A stretch of 62,913 nucleotides of DNA, filler included, from Globobulimina sp. (taxonomy: Eukaryota), in NCBI GenBank assembly GCA_003354225.1. It is 33 parts of 33 records of this genome, joined end to end, with 100 filler letters (N's around TTAATTAATTAA, not from the genome) between each part and the next. Parts side by side here need not be neighbours in the genome. Positions count along the whole stretch, not along the records: positions 32,471 to 34,279 come from PIVH01011685.1; 32 more parts are not named here. One strand, given 5' to 3'. The notes beneath the pieces are model-generated. The model did not search any database. It saw nothing but the letters and a program-made list of their open reading frames with translations, and had not been told where the DNA came from. Both the position numbers and the translations under genes were made by a program. Positions 1,715-36,288 of this stretch are shown one piece after another; position 1 is the stretch's first letter, and the number at the start of each line of letters is the position of its first letter.

Positions 1715-2093
1715 TGATTGTGACTGTAAATTAATCCTCAAAAATGTGTTAATGAATAGCGTTGATTTTTTTCCGATCCGCGAAAAAAGTTTGTAATTGA
1801 TTAATTTAATTNNNNNNNNNNNNNNNNNNNNNNNNNNNNNNNNNNNNNNNNNNNNTTAATTAATTAANNNNNNNNNNNNNNNNNNNNNNNNNNNNNNNNN
1901 NNNNNNNNNNNTTCGATTTTTTTTTGTTATCATTTTTGTTGAAATTTTGTGTCATGGGGCACCACTAAAGTTGTTCACAAATATGAATTGCTAGCTGTAC
2001 ATCTGATTATTAATACACACATACTTACAGTTGTCACACTAAAATTTATAGTTTCAATATCCTATATCCTTGCACATGGAAACGAACATTTGA

Positions 2094-2753
2094 TTATGAT
2101 TCAGCATTGATTGTACTATCAGTGGTTGAACTATTTTGTAGTTCATCAATTTTATCTTTATATTTTTGCAATTCTTCATCAAAATGGAGTATATTGTTCT
2201 GATATTCTTGAGCTAAAATCATTTCATTTTGTGCAGTTATCTCCAATTTCTGTGTTAATATTTTATTTCGTTTTTTTAATTTTTTATTTTCTTGTTTTAA
2301 TCGAATTTGTTCTAAATCTGTCTCAAGTAATAACGCTTGAAAACTATCCAATAATCCATTAATTAGTTTTCTTTTATCCTCATATTTGGAGAATTCATCA
2401 ACTTTATCATTGTCAAATTTATGTAATAATTTCTTTATATTTTCGGCCTTCTGCAATGCACTGTGATTGATATTATATTCTTTCTGTAAACGTTTTATAT
2501 TTCGCTTAATATTTTTTTCATGAAAAATCACATCATTTAATATCTTTTTTAATTTGCTAGCTTGGCTGGAACTTTCCTCTGGTTCTGTATCATCTGATTC
2601 GTCATTCCCCATTTTTGATTCTTTCACATCATCCGATCTAGAAATTGAATCGACACTTACTTCTTCATCGGTGATATTACTATGGTACACCGTCAAGTTC
2701 ATATTCACTACATTTAAAGATGAACCATTTGTTTTTTTCTTTAACAATGACAT
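2094..2753 (-). CDS. Coiled-coil hypothetical protein
   Basis: ORF of >200 aa rich in K/E/L heptads. Confidence 0.6.
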   Translation of the reverse strand: MSLLKKKTNGSSLNVVNMNLTVYHSNITDEEVSVDSISRSDDVKESKMGNDESDDTEPEESSSQASKLKKILNDVIFHEKNIKRNIKRLQKEYNINHSALQKAENIKKLLHKFDNDKVDEFSKYEDKRKLINGLLDSFQALLLETDLEQIRLKQENKKLKKRNKILTQKLEITAQNEMILAQEYQNNILHFDEELQKYKDKIDELQNSSTTDSTINAES

Positions 2754-2979
2754 GATTGTTTGTAAGTGAATTTTTTGTAAAAAAAAAGAACATGTCAACC
2801 ACAAAAACATTTGTTGTGTTTATATTTTATTTTTTCGGAGCAAAAGCATTTTTTTCAAATGTATGCGAGGTAGCTTTAAGAAATACAAATTTAGCCACTA
2901 ATGTTGAAGTTAATTTGATTAATTGTCGATCGATGTCATTAATTTATAATTTAAATATAATATTAATATACAGCATCCA

Positions 2980-3722
2980 TTGTTGGATTCCGGTGCTTCT
3001 GTTACGTATACAGCAGGGATATCAACGTATCCTACAGATGTAAATTGGGTATCGATTCAAAATATGGCGATGGAGCATAGTAAATGTGTGGTGACCTTTT
3101 ATGCAGATTCAACGTGTCTTAATGCAGCAGGGAGTATGTTTGCGCATAATGGTATTGTTCGTAGTGATATTCCTACGATTGCGGGTATCACAAAATGTAT
3201 TAAAATCGCGGTTGAAGCGGATAGCGCCTCAACGATGGAAAATTGTAGATTAAGTTTATTTGCAAATGAAGGGTATGGCGGTGAGGAGGTAGTGCGTGAC
3301 ATGGAATACGATGCAACGATCGTAGCGGATAAATATGGTTATTTTAGCGATGAAGGTAACACTGTTCAGGTAAAACCATCATCGATCTCATTATTGTCCA
3401 GTTTATCAATAGAGACTTGTTGGGTTATGGTTTATGGTGACATTGGCTGTTCAGACCCAGCAAGTATTGATCTTCCTCGATTAGGGGCAATAACTGGTTC
3501 CGCCGGTGTTGCTCAACTCGATCCATCAGCGCCAACCATTAAATGTATTCGTGTGGTAGCAAATGAGATTGCCTCCATTCCAAGTGTTCCGACATTGATA
3601 TTCCATAATCCTTTCTTCCCATCATATTTAACCATATCTTTGGCGCTCATTGTTGTAGTAAATGTGTTGCTTATTTTAGCAACGGTTTGGTATTGTACCT
3701 GCAAAACTAAACGGGGGATTTC
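2980..3722 (+). CDS. Single-pass membrane protein with repeated CxxxxYxxxxC extracellular motifs (partial)
   Basis: Motifs CVVTFYADSTC, CRLSLFANEGY and CWVMVYGDIGC, then a C-terminal TM helix followed by KTKR. Confidence 0.55.
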
Positions 3723-3822
3723 NNNNNNNNNNNNNNNNNNNNNNNNNNNNNNNNNNNNNNNNNNNNTTAATTAATTAANNNNNNNNNNNNNNNNNNNNNN
3801 NNNNNNNNNNNNNNNNNNNNNN

Positions 3823-5357
3823 CAATATAGTGGATATTTAAAGATTCCAAATGCAACACCAAACCGATTTTATCATTATTGGCTAGTCACAAGCGAAGCA
3901 GATCCAGCCAATGCACCCATTGTTGTTACGTTCATTATTTATTTAATCTCTATTTATATTTCCAACATGCAAAAATATAAATACTTCTCGCTCACAGTTT
4001 TGGTTTAATGGCGGCCCAGGTAATAAATACTCACTTTCTACTGTAAGTACACACACTCACTTCCTCCCTATACAGGAGCCTCCAGTTTATTGGGCTATTT
4101 TGTAGAACAGGGACCATTCAATGTAAATAATGACTCGGTTACATATAACACCACCAATGTACCGCTATTATATTCCAATCAATATTCCTGGTCTAAAGTA
4201 TCCAATATTGTGTATTTAGAGAGTCCCGCTGGTGTTGGCTATTCATACTGCGATGGCGCTGATGGTCCGATCAATAGCTGTCCAGATTGGAACGATACCA
4301 ATGTCGCAGAGGATAATCATATTATTTTACAAGAATTTTTCAAAGCGTATCCAGAATATATGGGAAATGATTTTTTTATATTTGGCGAGTCTTACGGCGG
4401 TATTTATGTGCCGACATTGGTTATGCAAATCGAGATGGATCCCTCTGGGTTGCCGCCGTTGGTTGGCTTTGCAATCGGTAATGGCTGTTTAGGTCACGGC
4501 AATATGGGTGCTTGCGGTGTGGATCACCGATCTCTATTTTACCAGTTTATGTATGGCCATTCACAAATATCCACAAAACAGTATCAAAATTTATTAGAGA
4601 TTTGCGGCAATTCTCTCATTTATGGGAATGAAACGAGAGAATGCAGAACCGCTATGAACGCAGTACATGAAAGTTTAGGTGGATACAACGTATATGCGAT
4701 GTACGATGAATGTTATTTTGTGAATGATCAAGTTGACGAAGTGTATAAATTTGAGTCGGATCGATTTAATTTGAAGTATGCGTTCAACGGTGCACAGTGG
4801 AGAGTGAATGAAGAAGATGGCAATGATGAATATAAATGTGGCGGATGGACAGTGACTGAAATATATTTGAATCAACATCAAGTTAAAACTGCAGCGCATA
4901 TTCCATTGGATATAACATGGCAATGGCAAGGTATGCACAGTTTATATATATTGAAACATTGCAATTGGTACAACTTATACAAATCATTTGTAATATAGAT
5001 GGTGATTGGAATAAATATAAGAGCACACAAACTGATTTAACACCATATTATAAAGAATGGGTCAAGAAATACAGAATATTAATTTATTTTGGTGATACAG
5101 ATGCCGGCGTACCATACAATGGCGGAGAACAATGGACCATGGCATTGGGATATCCAGTAAAAGAAGCCTGGAGACCATGGACACCTTCGCAATCAACAAT
5201 GGGTGGCTATGTGCAAATTTATGAAACTGGCACAAATTTCACATATTTAACAGTGAGAGGTGCAGGTCATATGGCTGCACAATACAGACCTTTTCAATCA
5301 TTGTCAATGTATGACACATTTTTAAATAATGGATTGTATCCTTATTATAAACAATGA
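3823..5357 (+). CDS. Serine carboxypeptidase (peptidase S10), 5'-partial, 3 introns (3925-3997, 4020-4075, 4931-4998)
   Basis: Spliced product reads QYSGYL...PIVFWFNGGPGASS, YLESPAGVGYSY, GESYGG (catalytic Ser), GDTDAGVP and TVRGAGHM. Confidence 0.96.
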
Positions 5358-7643: not shown

Positions 7644-9420
7644 TATTTAAACGAAACACATCTTCGATCACTGGAGATTTGAAACACATTGATGTACTAA
7701 AGAATAAATGGTTCAGACCACGCCATGGCCGCAAACGTGTTCGTCGACTCTTTCAATGGCATCATAGGTTTGGTGGACATGTTTTTCGACGAAGAATATT
7801 ATTATTTGGTGCTAGAAAAGGCAGACTTCGATCTTTATTATGTGATGAAGCAAAAAGGCCATTTATCGGAGGCCAAAACGCGAAACATAAGCTACGCTCT
7901 GCTCGGAGCCATTGCTTATATGCACCAAAAGAATCTGTGTCATCGCGACATCAAACCCGAGAACATAGTGTTCATTGCGAGCGACACCGACTCGCCGCGT
8001 TTGATTGACTTTGGCGATGCGGAGATGGCGAAGAAAGGCAAAGTGTACACCGAGTTTGTGGGGACTCCGCCGTATATGGCACCGGAGAGACTCAACCGAC
8101 ACTACGGATGGCAGCTGAAAAAAGCAGATATTTGGGCCATCGCCGTGGTCGCTTACGAAATGTTTACCGGACAGCGCTGCTTCAAAGGCGAGACTCAAAA
8201 GCAAGTCTTTGGCCGCATACTACGCGGAGACTGGGCGTGGCCGCAGACACAGAGCCAGACCGCGGCCAGTGACGAGATGCAGGACTTTATTCGGATTTGT
8301 TTGATGCCGGACGCCAAAGACCGGCCCTCTGCCGACGAGGCATTGCAACATGTTTGGTTTGACAGTCTCAGGAAGCAGCAAAAAGCTGTCATTCCGCCAT
8401 CGGATGCCATTTCAGATGATGGTTATCAGTCAAATTCACATGCAAAATATGCCAAAATGAGCCATCTGTCCACTGTCACCGACACAGTGCGGAACTGTAC
8501 GGGAAGCATTGCGATATTTGATAACTTGGCGAGTATGGTGGAGAGCAATCCGTTGCAGGACATTTTAGTAAAGTTTAGTCTGCTTTTCTTATCCTTGCAC
8601 ATTTTGGTGTGTTTATACTTTATATGTACATTGCATACATACAAAAAAAACATGCAACAGAGGCTACGTGGACGCGATTAAAGATGACGACTTAGCTCCG
8701 TATAAGCTGCAGTTTGATAAATTAGACGCGGACAGAGATGGATTTATAACCGGGACAGATTTGGTGAACACGTTTACGGCGAATGGCATTGGTCCGAACG
8801 AAGCGGCGAGTTTGGCCTCGATTATTATCTCAGAGTTAGACGGCGAGCGTAGTGGCACCATATCGTTCAGGCAATTTTTGAAAGCTCGGATGAAGTTTGA
8901 CATATCGGGGCAGATTAAGGCGCGCCAAGTGTTTGATGATATTCTTGCGGCGTCGAACAGCCGTTTGCTGTCTGAGAAAATGAGGGGAAAATATGGCGAT
9001 GTGGCGCGAAAACAAGCGGAGATATCACAGAAAATAATGTCGGGATTTGAGAGTGAAAAGGAACTGTCTGAGATTGTGGACGACTCTGTTAATGGAACTG
9101 GCATATCTCGAGAGGATATTATTGTGTTTTCGCAGTCGCAGACCGATCTGAAAGGGGACGAAAAGGAGAATTTGTATGCGATATTTGATACATATGATAA
9201 GGACGGAGATGGTATGTTGACCTTTGCAGATTTTGTGCAGGCTGTGTATAGTCGGCGCATTGTATCGGTTCTGAATGTGGACGAGAACGGAGAGAATGTA
9301 GAGTCACAAATGAATGATGATATAGTGGGAAAAGATAAAAATAAGGAGAGTCCATTAGGATTGCGTTTGAAAAGCCGTGTATCGCAGGATTTGTTGCCAA
9401 CGAGGGCAACGACGCAATAA
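7644..9420 (+). CDS. Ca2+-dependent protein kinase (kinase + EF-hands), 5'-partial, intron 8573-8660
   Basis: HRDIKPEN, DFG, GTPPYMAPE; EF loops DADRDGFIT, DGERSGTIS and DKDGDGMLT. Confidence 0.93.
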
Positions 9421-9791: not shown

Positions 9792-11306
9792 ATGATGGGT
9801 CATCAGAAACAAAACCAAGGTAAGCTTTTTATCTACAATTTTGATCTTGAAAGCAGAGTCCGTCAGGACCATCCACTTCGAAAAATAAATCAGATTATTG
9901 ATTTTGAATTTGTCTATAATGAAGTCAAAGGCAAATACGGTGATAACGGTAACGTATCTGTACCACCGCCCGTAATCCTAAAATTAATGCTATTGTTAAT
10001 TTATTATAACGTGAGATCTGAGCGTGAGTTGATGGATACCTTACCTGAGCGCCTCGATTGGTTGTGGTTTCTTGGCTATGATTTGGAATCGAAAATACCG
10101 AATCACAGTGTTTTGTCCAAAGCACGAAATCGATGGGGTGTTGACACCTTTAAAAGTTTTTTTGAGCGCATTATTTTACAATGTGTTGAAACCGGACTAG
10201 TTGACGGTAGTAAGCTTTTCATGGATTCAAGTATGATTCAAGCCAATGCATCCAACAATTCAGTAGTTGATACCACATCGTTGAAACGGCACTTGAATAA
10301 AAGCTACCGGCGTCTTGAATCCAGGTTGGAAGAAAACGACTCGAATTGTCCAAATCAAGATATCTTAAAAAAGAAGGGTGTAGCCAACAGGAAGTATATA
10401 TCCACAACAGATCCGGATGCTTCTGTGGTCCGGCGAGGGCATGGCAGATCAAAACTTCAATATCAGGTCCATCGAGGGGTTGATGACAAGTGTGAAGTCA
10501 TCACAGCCACCGAAGTTACACCCGGTGCAATCCACGAGTCGCATCTGCTCAATGCGCTGATAAAGAATCATCATCAAAATACAGGTCAAAAAGTTGAAAT
10601 AGTTGTGGCCGACAGTAAATATGGAACAATAAATAATTATCTTAGCTGTCATGATCAAGAAATTGCAGCCCATATCCAGTCTTTAGAGAAGAGCTCACGT
10701 GGTACCGGAAGCAAAAAAAATATTTTTCCAAAAGAAAGCTTCATCTATGATCGGGAAGACGACATTTTTATCTGTCCAGCAGGGAAGCCTCTTAAAAAGC
10801 GCAAATATAATAAAAAAAGACATCATTTTGAATATATTACAACATCCGGCACATGTAAAAATTGTGAACTTTGTAACCAGTGCACCCAATCAAAAAATGG
10901 TCGTACTGTAAATCGACATATCAGACAAGACGACCTTGATATAATGCTTTCAGAGGCAAACAGTCAGCACTCAAAAAAAGATATTAGAAAACGCCAGCAT
11001 TATATGGAGCGAAGTTTTGCATATGCCACACGCTATGGTTTTAAAAGAGCTCGATGGCGAGGACTTGATAAGATGCAGATTCAAGAGTATTTGACAGCAG
11101 TAATCCAAAATATCAAAGTATTACTAAAATATAATCATAAGCCTCTCAAAGAAATGGGTCTGAAAGCCCCATTAAAAGCAAGCAAGATAAAAAGAGGACT
11201 CGGTTATATTCTTAAACGCATTAATTTTAAAATGCGTTTACCCCTGGCAAGTCAACCAACACTAATTTTATCAAATTTTGATATTAGACCTCATTGCATG
11301 GTTTAG
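9792..11306 (+). CDS. IS1182-family DDE transposase
   Basis: DHPLRKI, PPVILKLMLL, SERELM, WFLG..IPNHSVLS (DUF772-like); DSS, STTDPDA and ADSKYG; Cys cluster CPAG..CKNC..C..C; R..MERSFA. Confidence 0.95.
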   Translation: MMGHQKQNQGKLFIYNFDLESRVRQDHPLRKINQIIDFEFVYNEVKGKYGDNGNVSVPPPVILKLMLLLIYYNVRSERELMDTLPERLDWLWFLGYDLESKIPNHSVLSKARNRWGVDTFKSFFERIILQCVETGLVDGSKLFMDSSMIQANASNNSVVDTTSLKRHLNKSYRRLESRLEENDSNCPNQDILKKKGVANRKYISTTDPDASVVRRGHGRSKLQYQVHRGVDDKCEVITATEVTPGAIHESHLLNALIKNHHQNTGQKVEIVVADSKYGTINNYLSCHDQEIAAHIQSLEKSSRGTGSKKNIFPKESFIYDREDDIFICPAGKPLKKRKYNKKRHHFEYITTSGTCKNCELCNQCTQSKNGRTVNRHIRQDDLDIMLSEANSQHSKKDIRKRQHYMERSFAYATRYGFKRARWRGLDKMQIQEYLTAVIQNIKVLLKYNHKPLKEMGLKAPLKASKIKRGLGYILKRINFKMRLPLASQPTLILSNFDIRPHCMV

Positions 11307-12777: not shown

Positions 12778-13242
12778 TCAAGGTCTCTGACCAACGCCAC
12801 CGGCAATATCATAAATCGCTCTTTGAACCAACAAATTAATTTCATCCGCATCACTTTGCGTGGTGGCCTCTGCATAAATCCTCACACAATCCTCAGTCCC
12901 CGAGGGTCGAACAAAAGATCGCGAATCTTGATACTTTGCACAAATTGCATCAATTTGATCCTGTACACCTTTGGGCTCCACACATAATTGCTCCGCATTT
13001 GCTGTGATAAACACAGTCCGGTCCTTTACTCTTAACTTCGTTAAACAACTTGGCCGATCCACATAAATCGAACTCCATTTCTTCATATTCCAATTTAAAT
13101 CATACAACGCTGCCTCTACCAATAACGCATCGGCCAATGCATCGCCAATGGCTTGGTTCGAAACCAAATGGATTAATATCAATATCTCAATGGCTTTCTT
13201 CTCCTCTTCGCCCACGCCATCATCCAATTTGCTCCTTAACAC
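12778..13242 (-). CDS. PGM3: Phosphoacetylglucosamine mutase, last exon
   Basis: NQAIGDALAD, Y.DRPS, P.GVQDQID and RSFVRPSGTEDCVRIYAEA. Confidence 0.93.
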   Translation of the reverse strand: MLRSKLDDGVGEEEKKAIEILILIHLVSNQAIGDALADALLVEAALYDLNWNMKKWSSIYVDRPSCLTKLRVKDRTVFITANAEQLCVEPKGVQDQIDAICAKYQDSRSFVRPSGTEDCVRIYAEATTQSDADEINLLVQRAIYDIAGGVGQRP

Positions 13243-13462
13243 ACATAGTACAGTAATAAATATATAATTTTGTNNNNNNNNNNNNNNNNNNNNNNNNNNN
13301 NNNNNNNNNNNNNNNNNTTAATTAATTAANNNNNNNNNNNNNNNNNNNNNNNNNNNNNNNNNNNNNNNNNNNNTAAATAGTTATTGATAATGACTAAATT
13401 GTTATAGGTGACTAAACTGACTAGTCTAGCTGTGACCTCCTAGGAAACCTCAACCCAATCAT

Positions 13463-28349: not shown

Positions 28350-28652
28350 AATTTGTGTATTGTTTTTTTGTGTTCTATGCAGAGCTGAAATTATATTTTT
28401 GCTCACAATATACAGAATTGCAAGTGAATGATATTTTGTTCGGCATTGTTATTTATAAACATTCATTTGTTTCTTTTTCTCCTTTCAATATTTTTCATTG
28501 TTGATGCTATCATTTCTTCTTTCGTTTCTCAAAAATAATTGCAGATCCTCACNNNNNNNNNNNNNNNNNNNNNNNNNNNNNNNNNNNNNNNNNNNNTTAA
28601 TTAATTAANNNNNNNNNNNNNNNNNNNNNNNNNNNNNNNNNNNNNNNNNNNN

Positions 28653-30461
28653 TGTTTGTCTAGGGCAGCTTCAAGGTTAATTTCATCACAATCAAGAACT
28701 TGCGCGAATATTTCAGTGTATACTAAATAAAATGTTTTTAGTATTCTTATTTTGTCTCTTAGTGAAATGAAGTTGTGATTAAAATCTAATTGCGCCAGCA
28801 TGCGTGCTTTCTGGTCAAGTTTGTTGAGGAAAACATTGTTTGTGCACTGTGTTGAGACGAGGTTGGAACGATCAAAAGTGCAGAGGTGGGCACCTAAATA
28901 GCGCAAAAAGGTGACACGGCGTAACGGTTTGTTGTTCATTAAACAGGAAAAGTGCATTTTGGATATAGGCCAGCTATCATCGCGTATTACATTATCCCAC
29001 ATTATGTGGAAAGGTTTATCGGAGATTTTATGTTGATAATAGCTGTAATGTGTTTTGAAGGCTTCGAGTATTTCTGTTGGGATTTCAGTGTCATGATAGG
29101 TGCAGACGTATCCATCAATATTAATGGCCATTGAGCGTATAGAGCCAGTACGTTGTATTAGGACCATCGGAGCCTGTTTATCATTGACTGCGTTTAACTT
29201 TGTATGGTATTCTGCGGTTATGGCTTGTTTCTGTGTGGCATTATAATGGTGTAAGTTGTTGGTTGTCACGGATGGATCATTATAAATTATGGTTTTGCAT
29301 TTATTGGCATTGAAAGTGTACGCCCATTTTTTGCTGTGCTTTTCGCAGATTTGTAATAGTTTGGATAGATTATCAATGGAGTTAGCAACAAGGACAACAT
29401 CATCAGCATAGAAGATACATGAAATCAATTGGTTTGGATCTGGCGAAGTCGCTCCACACTCAGAGGCTTGCAATTCAGTGATCATGTCATCAATGAAGGC
29501 GGCAAATAGGATGGGACTGAGCACGGATCCTTGGAGCACTCCATTGTGCAATTGGAAGAGTTGGGTTATGAATGGTATGGCTCTTATGGCAGAGTGAGAA
29601 TTGTTGTATATCGCTTGGATGATTTTGCAAATATTGACAGGAATATTGAAGTGTTGATGCAGTTTGTAGAGGAGGCCTTTTCTCCAGACAGTATCGAAGG
29701 CTTTGCGGATGTCAAGCGATGCGCAGTACAGAGGTTTGCGTTGAATCGTGGCGGTTTCAGAGACGAGGTGCAATGTACCAAGTTGTTCTGGAACACCCCG
29801 TTTGGCTCTGTTGCCGCCTTGTAAAATATGTAGGCTCTTTCTAAAATTATGCTTGATATTCATGCGCCACAGAACCAATCGCTCATAGGCTTTGAATATT
29901 AGGGGGAGTAAAGTGATGGGGCGGTAATGGTTTGGTGTATCGCCATCTGGCTGTTTTAATATGGATATCACCGAACCTAGACGGCAGTAATAAGGGATTA
30001 TATATGTACTGTTCCAGGTATTAAACATCACACAAAGTAGTTGATTTATCACATCATTGTTTATGCTGAGATGCGGTGATTTAATTCCATCGTAACCCGG
30101 CGCAGAATTGGCATTTGCAAACTGCAGTGCCATTTCTACAGAGGAGTATTTTAAATAAGGGTCCTCCTCACTGTCTGAGTGATTATCAGGAGAGGAATAG
30201 CCAGAATTGTGTATGTCTGCAGATGGGGGTTTGTTGGGGGAAATGTTGGTGTCATTGTCTATGTTGCCGAGGGAATAATTGTATTCTGTGTGAAACATTT
30301 CGTTCTGTTCAGTTTCGAGTCGATCAATGTGGGATGGGTCATAGTGCGGGATCGTTTGGGTGCTTTCATGGAAGATCCAATTTTCATGGTCGTTGGGGAT
30401 AGATTCTAAGGGCGGGGGTGGAGGATCTGGTTCATTTTCAGTTGGCTTGGAAGGGATGAAT
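28653..30461 (-). mobile_element. Non-LTR retrotransposon ORF fragment (reverse transcriptase)
   Basis: APGYDGI, YRPITLL, DIRKAFDTV, GVLQGSVLSPILF, YADD and RYLG. Confidence 0.93.
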
Positions 30462-30561: not shown

Positions 30562-32370
30562 TGAAAATGTTTTCAATAATTAGTTTTGTTTCGTTATATC
30601 GCGGATAATTGAGTCCATTTATGAATTGGAGCACAGGTAAATTATCAACATAGATTTTATAGTGAATTGTATCATTATTGCAGCGAATTTATTTATCGAC
30701 TAATATAATTATTTATTTTGCATAAATAAAAACAATATACATCGAGGCAATTGGTTCAATATTTAGGATAAATTGCAGAATATCAATAGGTGTATCTAAT
30801 CGACATGGAATTGCTAATCGGAGGAACTTATTTTGGAGGGTTTCAAGTAAATTTTTAGAATCATATGGATAATAATGAGTTAATCCATACTCAATTCTGG
30901 ATCTTGCCAATGATTTATAAAGGACCGCAATGGATAATGGGGTTAATTTTATACCGGATTTAATAGTAAAATATAATCGCCAGAAACTACGCATAGTTTT
31001 GGCCCGGATTTTATCAAAATGCGCATGGAAATTCAATCTCTCATCAAACCACAGTCCCAGGTATCTGGCAGTATGTTCATATTGGATTGGGATCGAATGG
31101 ACATTATATTTACTTATTTTAATTGATTTATGTGTATTAGGATCGACTTTTATTGTATATTTAGGATAGTATTTGATAGGATTTCCATGGGAGAAGTTCA
31201 TGGATGTACATTTTGAAGGATTGATCATAAGTTGCCATTTATCACACCAATTACTGAAATTATCAAGTTCTTTTTGGAGGAATTTATATCGGAGAGGGTC
31301 TTTTGTACCGGGGCTGGTCCAAAATGCTGTATCATCAGCAAAACAAGCAAAATGGACAAAGTTCGGGAATTTTAGATTAAAGTCATTTGTAAAAATTATG
31401 TAGAGTATGGGGGAGAGAGCAGAGCCCTGTGGGACTCCAATTGGCTGCGCAACCCAATTTGACTCTGCTTTCTTAGCAATGACTTTTGTAAAACGTGTTT
31501 GAATGAATGAAGCTAATACATTTAATATATTTCCTTTTATATTATTTTTAATTAATTTATATATTAAACCATTATGCCACACACTATCATATGCTTTCGA
31601 AAAGTCCGTGAAAACAACATCCGTTTCACTGACCATATCGAATGAAGTTTGTATGTCGGTTATAAACGTTGTCAGTACGTCATCGCAACATCTATTTATC
31701 TGAAAGCCACATTGATAGTTATCAAATATTTTATTCGTTACACAAAAATGCTGAAGTCTTTTTGCGAGTATTTTCTCAAAAACTCTACCTAGGCACGACG
31801 AGACCGCAATGGGTCGGTAGTTTCTAGGGTTACTATGGTCTTTATATGGCTTTGGTATTGGAAGAAGGTGAGAAAAGTTCCAATATCCAGGGAACACACC
31901 TTTATCCAGGCATTTATTGAACAGCGGAAGGAGGCAATTTATCAGTATTTCACCGCCATGTTTTATCATTTGGTTGTGAATTCTATCTGGTCCGTACGCT
32001 TTATGAGTGTCCAGATCACGTATAACTGACCGGATTTCGTACGAAAGAATGGGATCGTTTAGTATTTGATAATTATTATTCATTATAGGGATTTCCGTAT
32101 CAATTCTCGATGGGTTCACAGTATTTGTTTGGGTATTTTGGTTTCGTTTATCCCGCATTATATCATTTCTGTCATTTAGGTCAATCGATATTGTTTCTCT
32201 GTTATTTTTTAGGTAATTTGGAACATATTCATTAATATATTGATGCCAATTTTTATGAATTTGGCTTGATTTAGGTTTAGGAGGTTTCGTCATGGCCTCT
32301 TGGAGCATTTTAGCCTGTTTATGAGGGTCAGTGATATTTGAGTCATTTTTAAAGGTCAATGCGGGAATAT
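30562..32370 (-). mobile_element. Second non-LTR retrotransposon fragment (RT), joined to an RNase H-like remnant
   Basis: KAYGPDRI, YRPIAVSS, DFSKAYDSVWH, GVPQGSALSP, FADD and RYLG; IYVDNLPVLQFI fragment at ~30562-30688. Confidence 0.93.
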
Positions 32371-32470: not shown

Positions 32471-33208
32471 ATCATGAATATTGTTATTATTTTGCAATAC
32501 GAGATTGAAGAAAATCATGATCAGCAATGTGCTGACGACGCAGCTATAGGTTTTGCGAGTATTATTGAACCATTTACTGCGGAATGGATTGGTGATTTGG
32601 ATGTATTGATTGATATTAATATTACAATCTGGAATGATGAAGCAAACGAAATGATAGTAATTACGTATGAAAGCTCTTCAACATCAGACGCGTCATTGGA
32701 GGAATTGAATTCAATTATAACTTCTAGCAAATTTAAACAGAAATTAATTGAGCAGTTGGAAGATAATGATAGCAATGCAGATGGTGATTGTTTTAAATTT
32801 TTAGATGTGAATAACAAAGATGATGGACAGGGACAGGGTATAGGTATAAATGTATTTGACTTTGATTTCGCAAACTATGGAACCACTGAAATTTTAGTGG
32901 TGGTTTTAGCCGGATTGATATGTTTAATATGTTTATGGATATTAATATATTTAGTAATGAAGAAAAAACAATGTAGGAAAGAAGGGAAACATAAAAAAAC
33001 AGCAACTGTTGAATTTGGTGAATTTGGTGGTTTAGGAATTAGACAAATATCTATAAATGATAAAGCCGATGCATTATTTGCGGAAGCATTAAGTGTTACG
33101 AATGAAAGAAAATTATCACAAATGAGTGTTCCTAGACATGTGGTAAATGCTACGCCGTCTGCCTCCGATTTGCCATTACCAGATACAAATGATGTTTATT
33201 ATATATAA
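32471..33208 (+). CDS. Single-pass membrane protein, C-terminal part
   Basis: Acidic ectodomain, TM ILVVVLAGLICLICLWILIYLV, then MKKK. Confidence 0.6.
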   Translation: MMNIVIILQYEIEENHDQQCADDAAIGFASIIEPFTAEWIGDLDVLIDINITIWNDEANEMIVITYESSSTSDASLEELNSIITSSKFKQKLIEQLEDNDSNADGDCFKFLDVNNKDDGQGQGIGINVFDFDFANYGTTEILVVVLAGLICLICLWILIYLVMKKKQCRKEGKHKKTATVEFGEFGGLGIRQISINDKADALFAEALSVTNERKLSQMSVPRHVVNATPSASDLPLPDTNDVYYI

Positions 33209-33361
33209 AGTTATATCCAGAAAATGTTTTTGTTGTTACTTCTACATATTTTTATTTTGTCTTTTTGTCTCCAATCTGTCAGCATGGAGTCGGACTTTAA
33301 TAAACCCGATTGATTCACTGTCATCTGCAAAGCCACATAGATATTTTCAATTGTTTACTTC

Positions 33362-33401
33362 TTTCTGATGAAGACCTCCTTTATGGGGTCGAAACGTCAA
33401 A
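33362..33401 (+). ncRNA. Minimal type I hammerhead ribozyme motif (Penelope-like-element type)
   Basis: CTGATGA(33365-71) A GACCTC-cttTAT-GGGGTC GAAA(33391-94) CGTC: complete core, 6-bp stem II, palindromic ACGT in place of stem III. Confidence 0.78.
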
Positions 33402-33819
33402 CATTGTAAATTTAGCTAGTTAGATCAACTCCACAGACTATAGCAAAGCCACAGACTTTTTGATTGCATATACATGACCAGAGAGAAGAGAAATCCACGC
33501 TCCTGGCATGCAATGCACTAAGTGATCTTCGAAAATAGTTAGTTGGCATATAAAGATTTTTTAACACAATATAATAGTTACAGTAATGTTCCCGATAAGA
33601 TATACACATATTAGTACTCATATAGATATTCATATGGTTGACCTGTCAAGGAATCATATATGCTCATATATATATTATATAACTCCAAAAAAATAAGGAA
33701 TATGGTATATTGTTAGTCTTATATTGCCTATTTTTCATTAGACTACTGCCAACTAACTTTTTTTCTCGATCCATAACTTAAAACTTCAATTACATGGCAC
33801 TTACGCTTTAGTTTGCCAA

Positions 33820-33890
33820 CTTTAAATCGGTTTCCCATTAATGAATTTAACCCAATTTAGTATTAAATTCATATGAAAACCGATTCAAAG
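33820..33890. repeat. Imperfect ~28-bp inverted repeat (MITE-like hairpin)
   Basis: CTTTAAATCGGTTTCCCATTAATGAATTTAA, a 12-nt loop, then TTAAATTCATATGAAAACCGATTCAAAG. Confidence 0.7.
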
Positions 33891-34379
33891 CAATCTAAAA
33901 ATCGCCTCTCCAGATTTAATATACATAATACGAATGCGTATCAATACACTGAAAGCAAAACATGTCACAGCCTACGAAGGGATTACGCCGTTCGCCGCAT
34001 GCTTTGCCCAAACCGAAACTATAAATTAAATGAGAGATCGGTGGTGTGTCCCACCGCAACAAAAACATATTATGTTGGCCCACATTATCCAATTTATTGT
34101 AATGAAAGAAGATTTGTGTTCAAATCCCTATCATTACATTTTTTATTTTTCCCAAACAAAACTACTATTTTGTGTTTGTGTTTGTGTTTCTGTTGTATGT
34201 TTGAGTATACAATATTTTCTCAGATAACTTCAAAAACACACATTCTCCATCAAAAAAGACATAAAAAAATTGTAAAACANNNNNNNNNNNNNNNNNNNNN
34301 NNNNNNNNNNNNNNNNNNNNNNNTTAATTAATTAANNNNNNNNNNNNNNNNNNNNNNNNNNNNNNNNNNNNNNNNNNNN

Positions 34380-34847
34380 AGGCTCCCCTTTTTCTTTCGC
34401 CCTTCCTCGTTTTTCAAAGTCCCCCCGGCACCCCGTGCCCCGCGCTCCGAACTCCTCGGCAAGCAACCCGCGCTTGCAATGGGGACATACGACCGCCTTG
34501 CGCCCGCTCCAGGCGGTGGCCAGCTTTTTCGCGGCGATACGGTGCAAGTTGGCGTTTTTGGCCGCTGTTGCCGTCGCATAGAGCCGTTTCGCCGCCCGCG
34601 TCATTTTCTCAAATCTATTTGCCAGCACCATAAACGCGTCATACCCTTCGACGGTGCGCTTGCAATCACGGCACCAAATACGCCGTTCATAGGTATCATA
34701 GGACAATCGCAAATGATGGCAGCGAGTGGGCCTTTTTGAAAAGCCGCGCTCTAGCCGGACCCCGGCCAAATCTACAACAACCGCGTCAAATTCGGGCCTT
34801 GAATCAATCGGCTCATCCCCGCCCCCGTCTGTAATCATGATACTCAA
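34380..34847 (-). CDS. Phage-type hypothetical protein with two CxxC pairs (3'-partial)
   Basis: GC-rich contig; CHHLRLSYD..ERRIWCRDC and CPHCKRGL; starts 2 nt after the upstream stop. Confidence 0.6.
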
Positions 34848-34849
34848 TC

Positions 34850-35629
34850 CTAAAAAATAATTTCATCATTAATTGCCAAGCCGGGCGCAAAATGCCCCGC
34901 CGGGGTACTTCGGTAAAATGCCGGTAATAAATCAAATCCTATTTTAGCATACCGATTAAATTCAAGCGACCATCCCGATTGATTAAATTTATCCGGCGCT
35001 TCCAGGCGCCGCCAATGGCGAAACCGATCCACCAGACAGGCAAGCCCTCTATCGTTTGCGCCCATAATGGCCCAACGGTTTAAATCGTCGCTGTCTGGTT
35101 TCCACTGACAAAGGGGAATTGCCTCTAAGTTCTCTTTTATAAATAATGATTCTTTCTCTTTACTATTAAGGGGGCATTTGTGGCCTTGTCCGTTTTTGGC
35201 AAGTCCGTTTTGGTCAAATTTTTCGGCGCTGTTTGGTGTTTTTTCTGGCTCTGTCTGTTCGATACTTTCCCCCAGGCTTTGCGGGCGTCCCTCGCCTTCT
35301 GGTATGCGCTGCAATATTTTATGAGTTGCCGGGTCAACATATTCATAAATAACCGGCCTTTTTTCGGGTTCCGCATAAAACACAAAATAATTTCGCACGG
35401 TTGTGCTGCCTATTTTAACAACGATTCGTTGCAAATATCCGGCCTCAACAAGCGCCGATCTAAGGGCGCGGGCGGTTTTAACGCCGCATTCAAAAAGCGC
35501 GGCAATCCATTTCAGTTGGGGCGTAAAATTTGGCGCCTGTAAATAAAGCTCACTATACAAAAGACGCAACCGCCCTGAAAGCCGCGCATCCCTGCGACCG
35601 GGTGCGGTCACAGATATTGAATAAGACAT
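34850..35629 (-). CDS. Phage/plasmid replication initiator-like protein (N-terminal wHTH)
   Basis: RLS..RLLY..L...IAALFECGVKTARALRSALVEAGYL (wHTH), short-repeat linker, C-terminal FR.W...W...F; SD GAGGGA before ATG 35629. Confidence 0.6.
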   Translation of the reverse strand: MSYSISVTAPGRRDARLSGRLRLLYSELYLQAPNFTPQLKWIAALFECGVKTARALRSALVEAGYLQRIVVKIGSTTVRNYFVFYAEPEKRPVIYEYVDPATHKILQRIPEGEGRPQSLGESIEQTEPEKTPNSAEKFDQNGLAKNGQGHKCPLNSKEKESLFIKENLEAIPLCQWKPDSDDLNRWAIMGANDRGLACLVDRFRHWRRLEAPDKFNQSGWSLEFNRYAKIGFDLLPAFYRSTPAGHFAPGLAINDEIIF

Positions 35630-35728
35630 AGTTATTCCCTCACTGGCCAAAAGGCCCTTGACTTGATACGGGGTAACAACTACAAGAGAGAAATAACATG
35701 TTGTTTCTCTTGTAGAGGCTTCCCAAAG

Positions 35729-35756
35729 ACCCGGTGTTCTAGCACCGGGTTTTTTT
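35729..35756 (+). terminator. Intrinsic terminator, antisense to the rep gene
   Basis: ACCCGGTG-TTCTAG-CACCGGGT with T7 at 35750-35756. Confidence 0.8.
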
Positions 35757-36288
35757 GTGTTTTGGTCTGTTTTATTGACTGACTACATTTTGATTTTCCC
35801 ATGTTTTTACATCTACCTGCATTCTCTCTTACAGTGTCGGCTATAGGAATTCAAACCAAAATGATACTTGATAAAAAGCTAATGTATTAAATACAATATC
35901 TTAATAGGATCAAGCAAGCCGCTAAATATGGGGGGATGAGGGAAGATATCACACAAGACTGGTCTTAGATTTATGTGATATTGAGAGGCATAATCAAGAG
36001 GCGGTCCCTGTATCGACTCTGGAAATCGTAGGGACCGCCGGACATGGGTATTAAGTCGGATCAACCCAAGACGTGAATTATACAGATTAAGCACCACACC
36101 GTAAACGATTAAAATTTACGGGCGTATTCTAATAGTTAATGAATATTCTAATAGATTTGTTTAATCAGCGTCCTGCGCCTCCTGTGCGNNNNNNNNNNNN
36201 NNNNNNNNNNNNNNNNNNNNNNNNNNNNNNNNTTAATTAATTAANNNNNNNNNNNNNNNNNNNNNNNNNNNNNNNNNNNNNNNNNNNN

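Follow-up and report, generated by a model that had tools for sequence, protein, structure and literature searches.

The DNA analysed here, a 62,913-nt stretch from the Globobulimina sp. assembly GCA_003354225.1 (hereafter the window), consists of 33 separate contigs of 1808–1811 nt each, which are sorted by length and joined by N44-TTAATTAATTAA-N44 linkers. Given that these pieces are unrelated contigs, gene neighbourhoods spanning a linker are unsafe. In the piece at 32471–34279 (1809 nt, GC 32.3%), there is a 40-nt motif on the plus strand (33362–33401) that we read as a genuine minimal type I hammerhead ribozyme (min-HHR), of the class found in the terminal repeats of Penelope-like elements (PLEs) and in their non-coding derivatives. 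Judged from its sequence and that of its relatives, the probability of this reading is about 70%. The sole clear open reading frame (ORF) of the piece has its stop codon about 160 nt upstream of the motif (157 nt by count), which is what the word intergenic, used in a preliminary description of this DNA, amounts to here. The features of the locus are as follows.

32474–33208, plus strand: upstream ORF of 244 codons with a probably open 5' end, encoding a single-pass membrane protein.
33327–33337, plus strand: direct repeat GCAAAGCCACA, copy 1, exact.
33362–33364, plus strand: 5' strand of helix I, UUU, positions 2.3–2.1, pairing with AAA at 33399–33401.
33365–33371, plus strand: catalytic box C3–A9, CUGAUGA, read from the sequence; the likeness among other copies starts at 33360–33365.
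33372, plus strand: unpaired A between positions 9 and 10.1, read from the sequence.
33373–33390, plus strand: helix II, GACCTC/GGGGTC, six pairs including one U-G, first pair G10.1–C11.1.
33373–33378 and 33385–33390, plus strand: the two strands of helix II, with a 6-nt loop at 33379–33384.
33391–33394, plus strand: GAAA, that is G12, A13, A14 and A15.1, read from the sequence.
33394–33397, plus strand: ACGU palindrome, helix III without a loop; CGT at 33395–33397, C-G at 15.2–16.2.
33398, plus strand: C17; cut predicted at 33398/33399 from standard hammerhead numbering.
33399–33401, plus strand: 3' strand of helix I, AAA, positions 1.1–1.3, pairing with TTT at 33362–33364.
33402–33445, plus strand: downstream part of the repeated block; other copies align to 33412, 33421 and 33432.
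33443–33453, plus strand: direct repeat GCAAAGCCACA, copy 2, exact.

Sequence analysis recovered, at the same positions, all elements that the preliminary description had named, namely CTGATGA, an extra A, a 6-bp helix II with one G-U pair, GAAA, CGTC and ACGT, as well as the weak helix I (TTT/AAA) and its alternative partner TGTTT at 33352–33356. The type I core (C3 U4 G5 A6 N7 G8 A9 plus G12 A13 A14) is correct in order and spacing, and the A15.1–U16.1 pair (A33394, U33397) is followed by H17 (C33398). Moreover, the traits of the minimal class are present: the insertion A33372, the G33373–C33390 pair, a helix II of six pairs (more than four), and a palindromic 15.2–16.2 in place of a helix III hairpin. 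About 15 of 15 core and near-core requirements and four class-specific extras are thus found in the motif. The min-HHRs of metazoan PLEs lack helix III and loop 3, have a helix II of 6–8 pairs and a helix I of 4–5 pairs (2 in Drosophila virilis), and act as dimers via an extended helix III (PMC4209133). Cervera and De la Pena (2014) listed four features that their search descriptor had not imposed, namely covariation across a family, an extra nucleotide separating 9 from 10.1, the G10.1–C11.1 pair and the palindromic 15.2–16.2 (PMC4209133). The window motif has three of these four, and the covariation is hinted at by the other copies described below. The earlier assignment to a minimal type I hammerhead with a one-nt insertion and a palindromic helix III is upheld in that the motif has the same build as the PLE min-HHRs, both those of PMC4209133 and those in a set of 104 sequences introduced below.

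A motif of this kind might be a chance match in AT-rich non-coding DNA. We searched both strands of 40 Mb of first-order Markov sequence of window composition with a descriptor as loose as that of the preliminary description. This yielded 10 matches with at least six pairs in helix II, equivalent to 0.015 per window, and one with at least three pairs in helix I in addition (0.0015 per window). Over about 250,000 windows hundreds of chance matches are expected; therefore, the motif alone is not decisive. It also occurs only once in the window, as had been remarked before, whether up to three mismatches are allowed, our own script descriptor is applied (sole match) or a covariance model is used, and Rfam gives no match to it (see below). 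Nevertheless, chance is a very improbable explanation. Independent contigs from other sequencing runs and organism codes carry the same 34–71 nt with 2–7 differences in different surroundings, and the match includes features beyond the loose descriptor.

These contigs came from aligning the Logan contigs of four public runs (four studies; organism codes A, B and C) to the motif contig; there are 166 further matching records beyond those listed, and differences close to alignment ends are not listed in this comparison. Five listed records match the hammerhead block alone, with unlike flanks on both sides.

X2 record 13 (318 nt): block 33360–33412, 2 differences.
X6 record 18 (196 nt): block 33362–33432, 2 differences and 1 gap.
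X6 record 19 (1107 nt): block 33364–33421, 7 differences.
X6 record 20 (1042 nt): block 33365–33412, 5 differences.
X7 record 29 (782 nt): block 33364–33397, 2 differences.

Contig depths in run X1 sum to 180.5 at 33398, an excess of about 27-fold over the locus's own contig (6.64). Since matches of 34–71 nt with 2–7 differences are beyond chance, the block is a repeat family common to organisms A, B and C. Many copies, mostly single dispersed motifs, are a trait of min-HHR families, and here at least five records with unlike flanks were found in three runs. Between the multi-copy family and the single-copy accident that the preliminary description had set against each other, these flanks and this depth decide for a family in relatives of this organism. 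The loose ends past 33412 and 33421 hold a 10-nt stretch that, by eye, matches 33423–33432 with one difference.

The differences among the copies are unevenly placed. The most divergent copy retains exactly U2.1 to U16.1, and among the matches listed no difference falls within 33385–33397 in any run. Position 17 is C or T among these matches (T in three X1 contigs, one X6 contig and X7 record 29), and the absence of G from the listed copies fits the H17 rule. In helix I, the pair 1.1–2.1 stays A-U in X6 record 19 and X7 record 29, and for the pair 1.2–2.2 the loose ends and listed changes give G-C in X6 record 19 and C-G in X7 record 29, against A-U in the window. In X6 record 19, the A>G change at 33400 is accompanied by a C on the opposite side. 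The variation pattern of the block appears to fit a ribozyme, and the helix I covariation is suggestive.

We then compared the motif with a reference set of the same build, gathered with a pattern from the motif core, CTGATGANGAC...GTCGAAACGTY, which stands for CTGATGA, one free base, GAC, 10–18 free bases and GTCGAAACGTY. One locus in viral_contigs, 11 in genome_contigs and at least 120 in metagenome_contigs matched the pattern, with an estimated one or so chance match per collection of that size. Two of the loci (L001 and L002) are coding-sequence accidents; apart from these and the ambiguous L003 and L012, the loci share the build of the window motif. Among the 139 matches listed, the window's included, helix I has at least three contiguous pairs in 107 (exactly three in 31), helix II has at least four pairs in 92, and the free base after CTGATGA is mostly A (91), otherwise T (47) or, once, G. 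With the window motif, several animal loci have in common the six letters of the 5' helix II strand, a loop of 6 nt and a helix I of three pairs. For alignment, 104 distinct sequences were kept after removal of L001–L003 and L012, of duplicate sequences, and of any motif lying within 7 nt of the end of its contig. Counted from the core, helix I pairs 1–3 form in 90%, 88% and 86% of the 104 sequences, with many pair types, and pairs 4–6 in 65%, 50% and 31%. The covariation score of helix I is 0.405, versus 0.154 after shuffling (reached in 0 of 500 shuffles) and at most 0.140 with slid partners. As only the first 3–4 pairs are reliably kept in the 104 sequences, a 3-pair helix I is normal for the class. 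A covariance model of the 104 sequences gave the window motif 49.7 bits, the next best score in the window being 11.9. On these scores and features, the window motif reads as a class member as good as the reference sequences.

The reference loci contain 31 ORFs of at least 220 codons, 27 of which were run against Pfam; those left out were three L012 ORFs far from the motif and one overlapping L099 ORF. At L061, two identical motifs at 1351–1382 and 8175–8206 (minus strand), 6.8 kb apart, flank broken ORFs with an RVT_1 match. Its sequence has the pseudo-LTR layout expected of a PLE, and the locus serves as a positive control. At L027, a reverse transcriptase (RT) ORF is followed by the motif. 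The other ORFs are animal genes: 7tm_1 (a G-protein-coupled receptor, GPCR), collagen, fucosyltransferase, NACHT and B-box. From these ORFs, the reference set reads as largely animal DNA, partly filed in bacterial bins.

A conserved repeat piece, such as a transposon end or a regulatory box, could resemble a hammerhead without being a catalytic RNA. Consistent with such a mimic, the likeness between copies continues for about 15–45 nt beyond the cut site, both helix I and helix III are minimal, and the thermodynamic fold favours another pairing. In addition, Craig et al. reported 'HHR_core' strings in PLEs that match no hammerhead descriptor (PMC8557442). We regard this explanation as quite unlikely, given that the part kept by the most divergent copy is precisely 2.1–16.1, that all ~15 core and near-core requirements and the four class-specific extras are present together, that two changes beside the core preserve pairing while position 17 stays non-G among the matches listed, and that over 100 further loci show clear structural selection on this same build.

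Several further observations weigh against a genuine hammerhead or its membership of a PLE family. In the window copy, a C-C mismatch ends helix I after three A-U pairs, and helix III consists of ACGU alone. The minimum-energy fold pairs UGAUG with CGUCA at –12.7 kcal/mol, compared with –5.5 for hammerhead helices I and II, and folding of the monomer and homodimer predicted structures without a hammerhead; because energy models miss the hammerhead core, folding was not used as a test. Rfam gave no match, either when the whole window was scanned at gathering scores or when 33250–33550 (301 nt) was scanned at E up to 10. As Rfam likewise misses 6 of 6 control min-HHRs, the motifs in L061, L027, L036, L062 and L076, this blank carries no weight. 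The 49.7 bits and the E-value are partly circular, because the gathering pattern was derived from the motif itself, and the helix I covariation among the runs comes from two copies and their 30-letter loose ends without an alignment. Furthermore, the 1.8-kb contig holds no second copy by covariance model, no tandem repeat covering the motif, and no RT or GIY-YIG gene by ORF and Pfam search. None of the listed block-bearing records (196–1107 nt) matches the block twice. From the literature, min-HHRs cleave poorly in vitro (PMC4209133). In the Anolis PLE, the one biochemically studied, the ORF begins at helix II and cleavage required the element's protein, insertion in vitro was independent of cleavage, and no RNA ends were found at the cut site (PMC11167929). 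In the window motif, the reading frame from the ATG in the core stops after 13 codons. A box C/D small nucleolar RNA was also considered, with UGAUGA as box C, and was set aside; no CTGA was seen downstream to about 33480.

The genuine-hammerhead reading enables us to propose a putative model for the motif. The RNA would fold around the CUGAUGA and GAAA core, with six pairs in helix II and, from the bases directly flanking the core, three in helix I. Because only the self-complementary ACGU is left of helix III, one copy by itself would be unable to reach the active fold. Two copies, on one transcript or on two, could form a common helix III by pairing of their ACGU segments, and each copy would then cut after C17 (33398/33399), probably slowly and with protein help, as is reported of animal PLE hammerheads. 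The dimer mechanism, the retroelement origin, the host and the activity are what we infer by analogy with known systems; dimer cleavage of min-HHRs is reported by Lunse et al. 2016, as cited in PMC6765202. The preliminary description had suggested checking for linkage to a PLE RT or GIY-YIG gene and for a tandem arrangement. Neither expectation was borne out on the contig, the nearby RT ORFs lying on other contigs. By analogy, a PLE or retrozyme link of the motif is plausible. With no ORF behind the motif and no partner within 1.8 kb, the lone copy is probably an inert insertion remnant. Thus, the window copy most likely represents a lone dispersed remnant of a retroelement insertion, rather than an active unit.

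The sequence upstream of the motif is compatible with such an insertion. X1 record 2 (585 nt, 0 differences) spans the ORF through the motif to 33389, in support of the join made in the contig. In X2, X6 and X7, the contigs cover the ORF to 33175–33271 and then end or diverge. The X2 contig of the locus ends at 33321, and the ORF contigs from runs guessed to be RNA end at 33237 or diverge past 33271. These ends and divergences fit a repeat insertion past the gene, without proving one, and the ORF would be a host gene beside the insertion.

Comparison with known systems places the motif closest to the min-HHRs of animal PLEs. It shares with them the type I topology, the full core, one unpaired nucleotide after A9, G10.1–C11.1, the 6-pair helix II, the short helix I, the lack of loop 3, the palindromic 15.2–16.2, and the occurrence of many dispersed single copies per genome. 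It differs in its apparently foraminifer-like protist host, in a helix I that is all A-U, and in the absence of a PLE ORF or second repeat from its 1809-nt contig. In PLEs, hammerheads lie in the pseudo-LTRs (PMC8557442). Animal non-LTR retrozymes carry a type I hammerhead in each tandem unit (PMC7229834; bioRxiv 10.64898/2026.07.22.740005). They resemble the window copy in being non-coding, with a partner-requiring type I hammerhead and a proposed PLE pseudo-LTR origin; the window contig differs in having one motif, no head-to-tail array and no tandem repeat covering the motif. Athena and Coprina, the telomere-attached, endonuclease-lacking PLEs of rotifers, fungi and protists, also provide a hammerhead outside the endonuclease-bearing animal elements and in protist hosts (PMC4209133, PMC8557442). 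However, the hammerhead of the fungal and protist elements is a different one, active as a monomer, with a long helix III (PMC4209133), and lies beside reverse-complement telomeric repeats. No telomeric repeats of that kind were seen in the inspected sequence, for which no dedicated search was made. The hammerheads of newt satellite 2 and the Schistosoma SINE-like elements (Rfam Hammerhead_1) are likewise of type I, with a weak helix III and dimer activity (Forster et al. 1988, as cited in PMC6765202), but keep a helix III hairpin and loop–loop contacts between helices I and II. Neither the window motif nor the animal min-HHRs are scored by the Rfam models derived from the newt/Schistosoma type. 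A literature search combining foraminifera, Reticulomyxa or Rhizaria with hammerhead or Penelope returned no description of such motifs, with supplementary species lists outside its scope; the one paper containing both 'Penelope-like' and 'foraminifera' does no more than cite Craig et al. Most likely, the motif is a real ribozyme of a known kind whose occurrence in this lineage is as yet undescribed.

As to the host, a carboxypeptidase ORF on a different contig (4090–4998) finds its closest named relatives among foraminifera, namely in Nonionella stella (54% identity) and Bolivina argentea, and the cluster representative of the Bolivina protein is 83% identical over 45% of the query. By these relatives, 'protist' is reasonable for the assembly as a whole, in agreement with the preliminary description; for the motif contig itself the term lacks such a basis, its own ORF having no named relative. 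The ORF at 32474–33208 found no relative in two word-based protein searches and only six weak matches, none named, in a whole-library scan, and its match to another membrane-protein ORF of the window is confined to the transmembrane segment. A Pfam search of the ORFs adjoining the motif gave no domain.

The motif might also be real and come, with its contig or its repeat family, from animal DNA of the same samples (prey, host or neighbour), as an ordinary animal PLE hammerhead. In favour of this, the typable pattern matches lie in animal-type contexts (the GPCR, collagen, fucosyltransferase, NACHT and B-box ORFs), the contig's ORF has no named relative, and the assembly is mixed, with the piece at 34380–36188 looking bacterial. 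Moreover, according to Craig et al. (2021), the canonical hammerhead-bearing PLEs with an endonuclease had been known from animals only, apart from a single transfer to conifers (PMC8557442). Against it, the motif contig falls within the AT-rich majority of the window by GC (32.3%) and trinucleotide make-up, its ORF runs for 244 codons without an intron, and the ORF and motif copies co-occur in runs of three organism codes, with similar contig depth in X6 (51 versus 75–96). In addition, another window contig is foraminifer-like, as said, and the 5' flanks of other motif copies are equally AT-rich. On balance, an animal source seems unlikely to us.

If the host is the foraminifer, the finding acquires a broader meaning. 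We suggest tentatively, and at somewhat less than even odds, that Foraminifera (Rhizaria) may have their own retroelement family with a dimer-type minimal hammerhead, a type so far tied to animal endonuclease PLEs and their retrozyme derivatives; this pairing of ribozyme and retroelement would then either be far older and more widespread than known from animals, or reflect transfer between animals and a protist. Minimal hammerheads are among the most numerous ribozymes of animal genomes and their role is unsettled, the proposals being retroelement RNA processing, circle formation, or mere passage on PLEs. A rhizarian family of the same build, if true, would widen the known host range, help to separate a ribozyme travelling with one retroelement clade from independent origin or spread, and offer a unicellular system for seeking the partner reverse transcriptase. 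The interest hinges mainly on a true foraminiferal host and a partner element; with animal contamination, the finding would be an ordinary one.

Some observations on the reference loci stand apart. Animal-type min-HHRs occur in bacterial-labelled bins, namely L004, L007–L009 and L011 (one Nitrospirales bin), L005 and L010 (Stappiaceae), and L006 (Poribacteria). L007 also carries an ORF for the eukaryotic RNA polymerase III subunit Rpc31, and L010 a retroelement RNase H ORF. From such contents, these bins probably hold mis-binned host DNA. In the viral collection, L012 has identical pattern matches at 12920–12954 and 13280–13314 (minus strand), 360 nt apart, each with a 7-pair helix II and without helix I pairing; it may have a different hammerhead topology or be a repeat.

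The two exact copies of GCAAAGCCACA, reported earlier at about 33327 and 33443, were confirmed. Exact direct repeats of 11 nt or more, spaced at most 150 nt apart, number 30 in the window, and the pair is therefore unremarkable. A near-copy of the GCAAAGCCACA core is seemingly present in both loose ends of X6 record 19 (thin evidence). Its interpretation as a target-site duplication was dropped as unsupported, such repeats being common and a near-copy seemingly flanking another copy of the block too; GCAAAGCCACA may instead belong to the element.

Downstream of the motif, the contig has further repeats. The summed contig depth in X1 is about 10,800 at 33569–33629 and 2,000–5,200 at 33752–33934, compared with 6.6 for the single-copy part of the same contig. 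Both are very high-copy repeats, and the right half of the contig is a repeat patchwork. A second short block of 58 nt, 33962–34019, is matched by X6 record 21 and X7 record 30, which share identical unlike flanks on both sides of it. We read it as part of another transcript or repeat that has been conserved. A tRNA search of the contig, this block included, found none.

On two other contigs of the window there are RT ORFs as follows.

28601–30298, minus strand: RT ORF, RVT_1 (E 1e-31).
30713–32359, minus strand: RT ORF, RVT_1 (E 1e-33).

By their motifs, we take these two to be LINE-like rather than Penelope-like. Judged from these ORFs, the assembly holds active-looking non-LTR elements. Linkage of the motif to them was rejected, since they lie on separate contigs. 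The piece at 34380–36188 has a GC of 47.5%, and its ORFs at 34850–35650 and 34332–34847 (both minus strand) have weak HTH_36 and zinc-ribbon matches. By these signs, it looks bacterial or plasmid-like, and the assembly mixed. Finally, a contig of GC 37.7% carries a 504-codon ORF at 9792–11306 (plus strand) with DDE_Tnp_1_6, DUF772 and DDE_Tnp_1 matches, an IS-type transposase.

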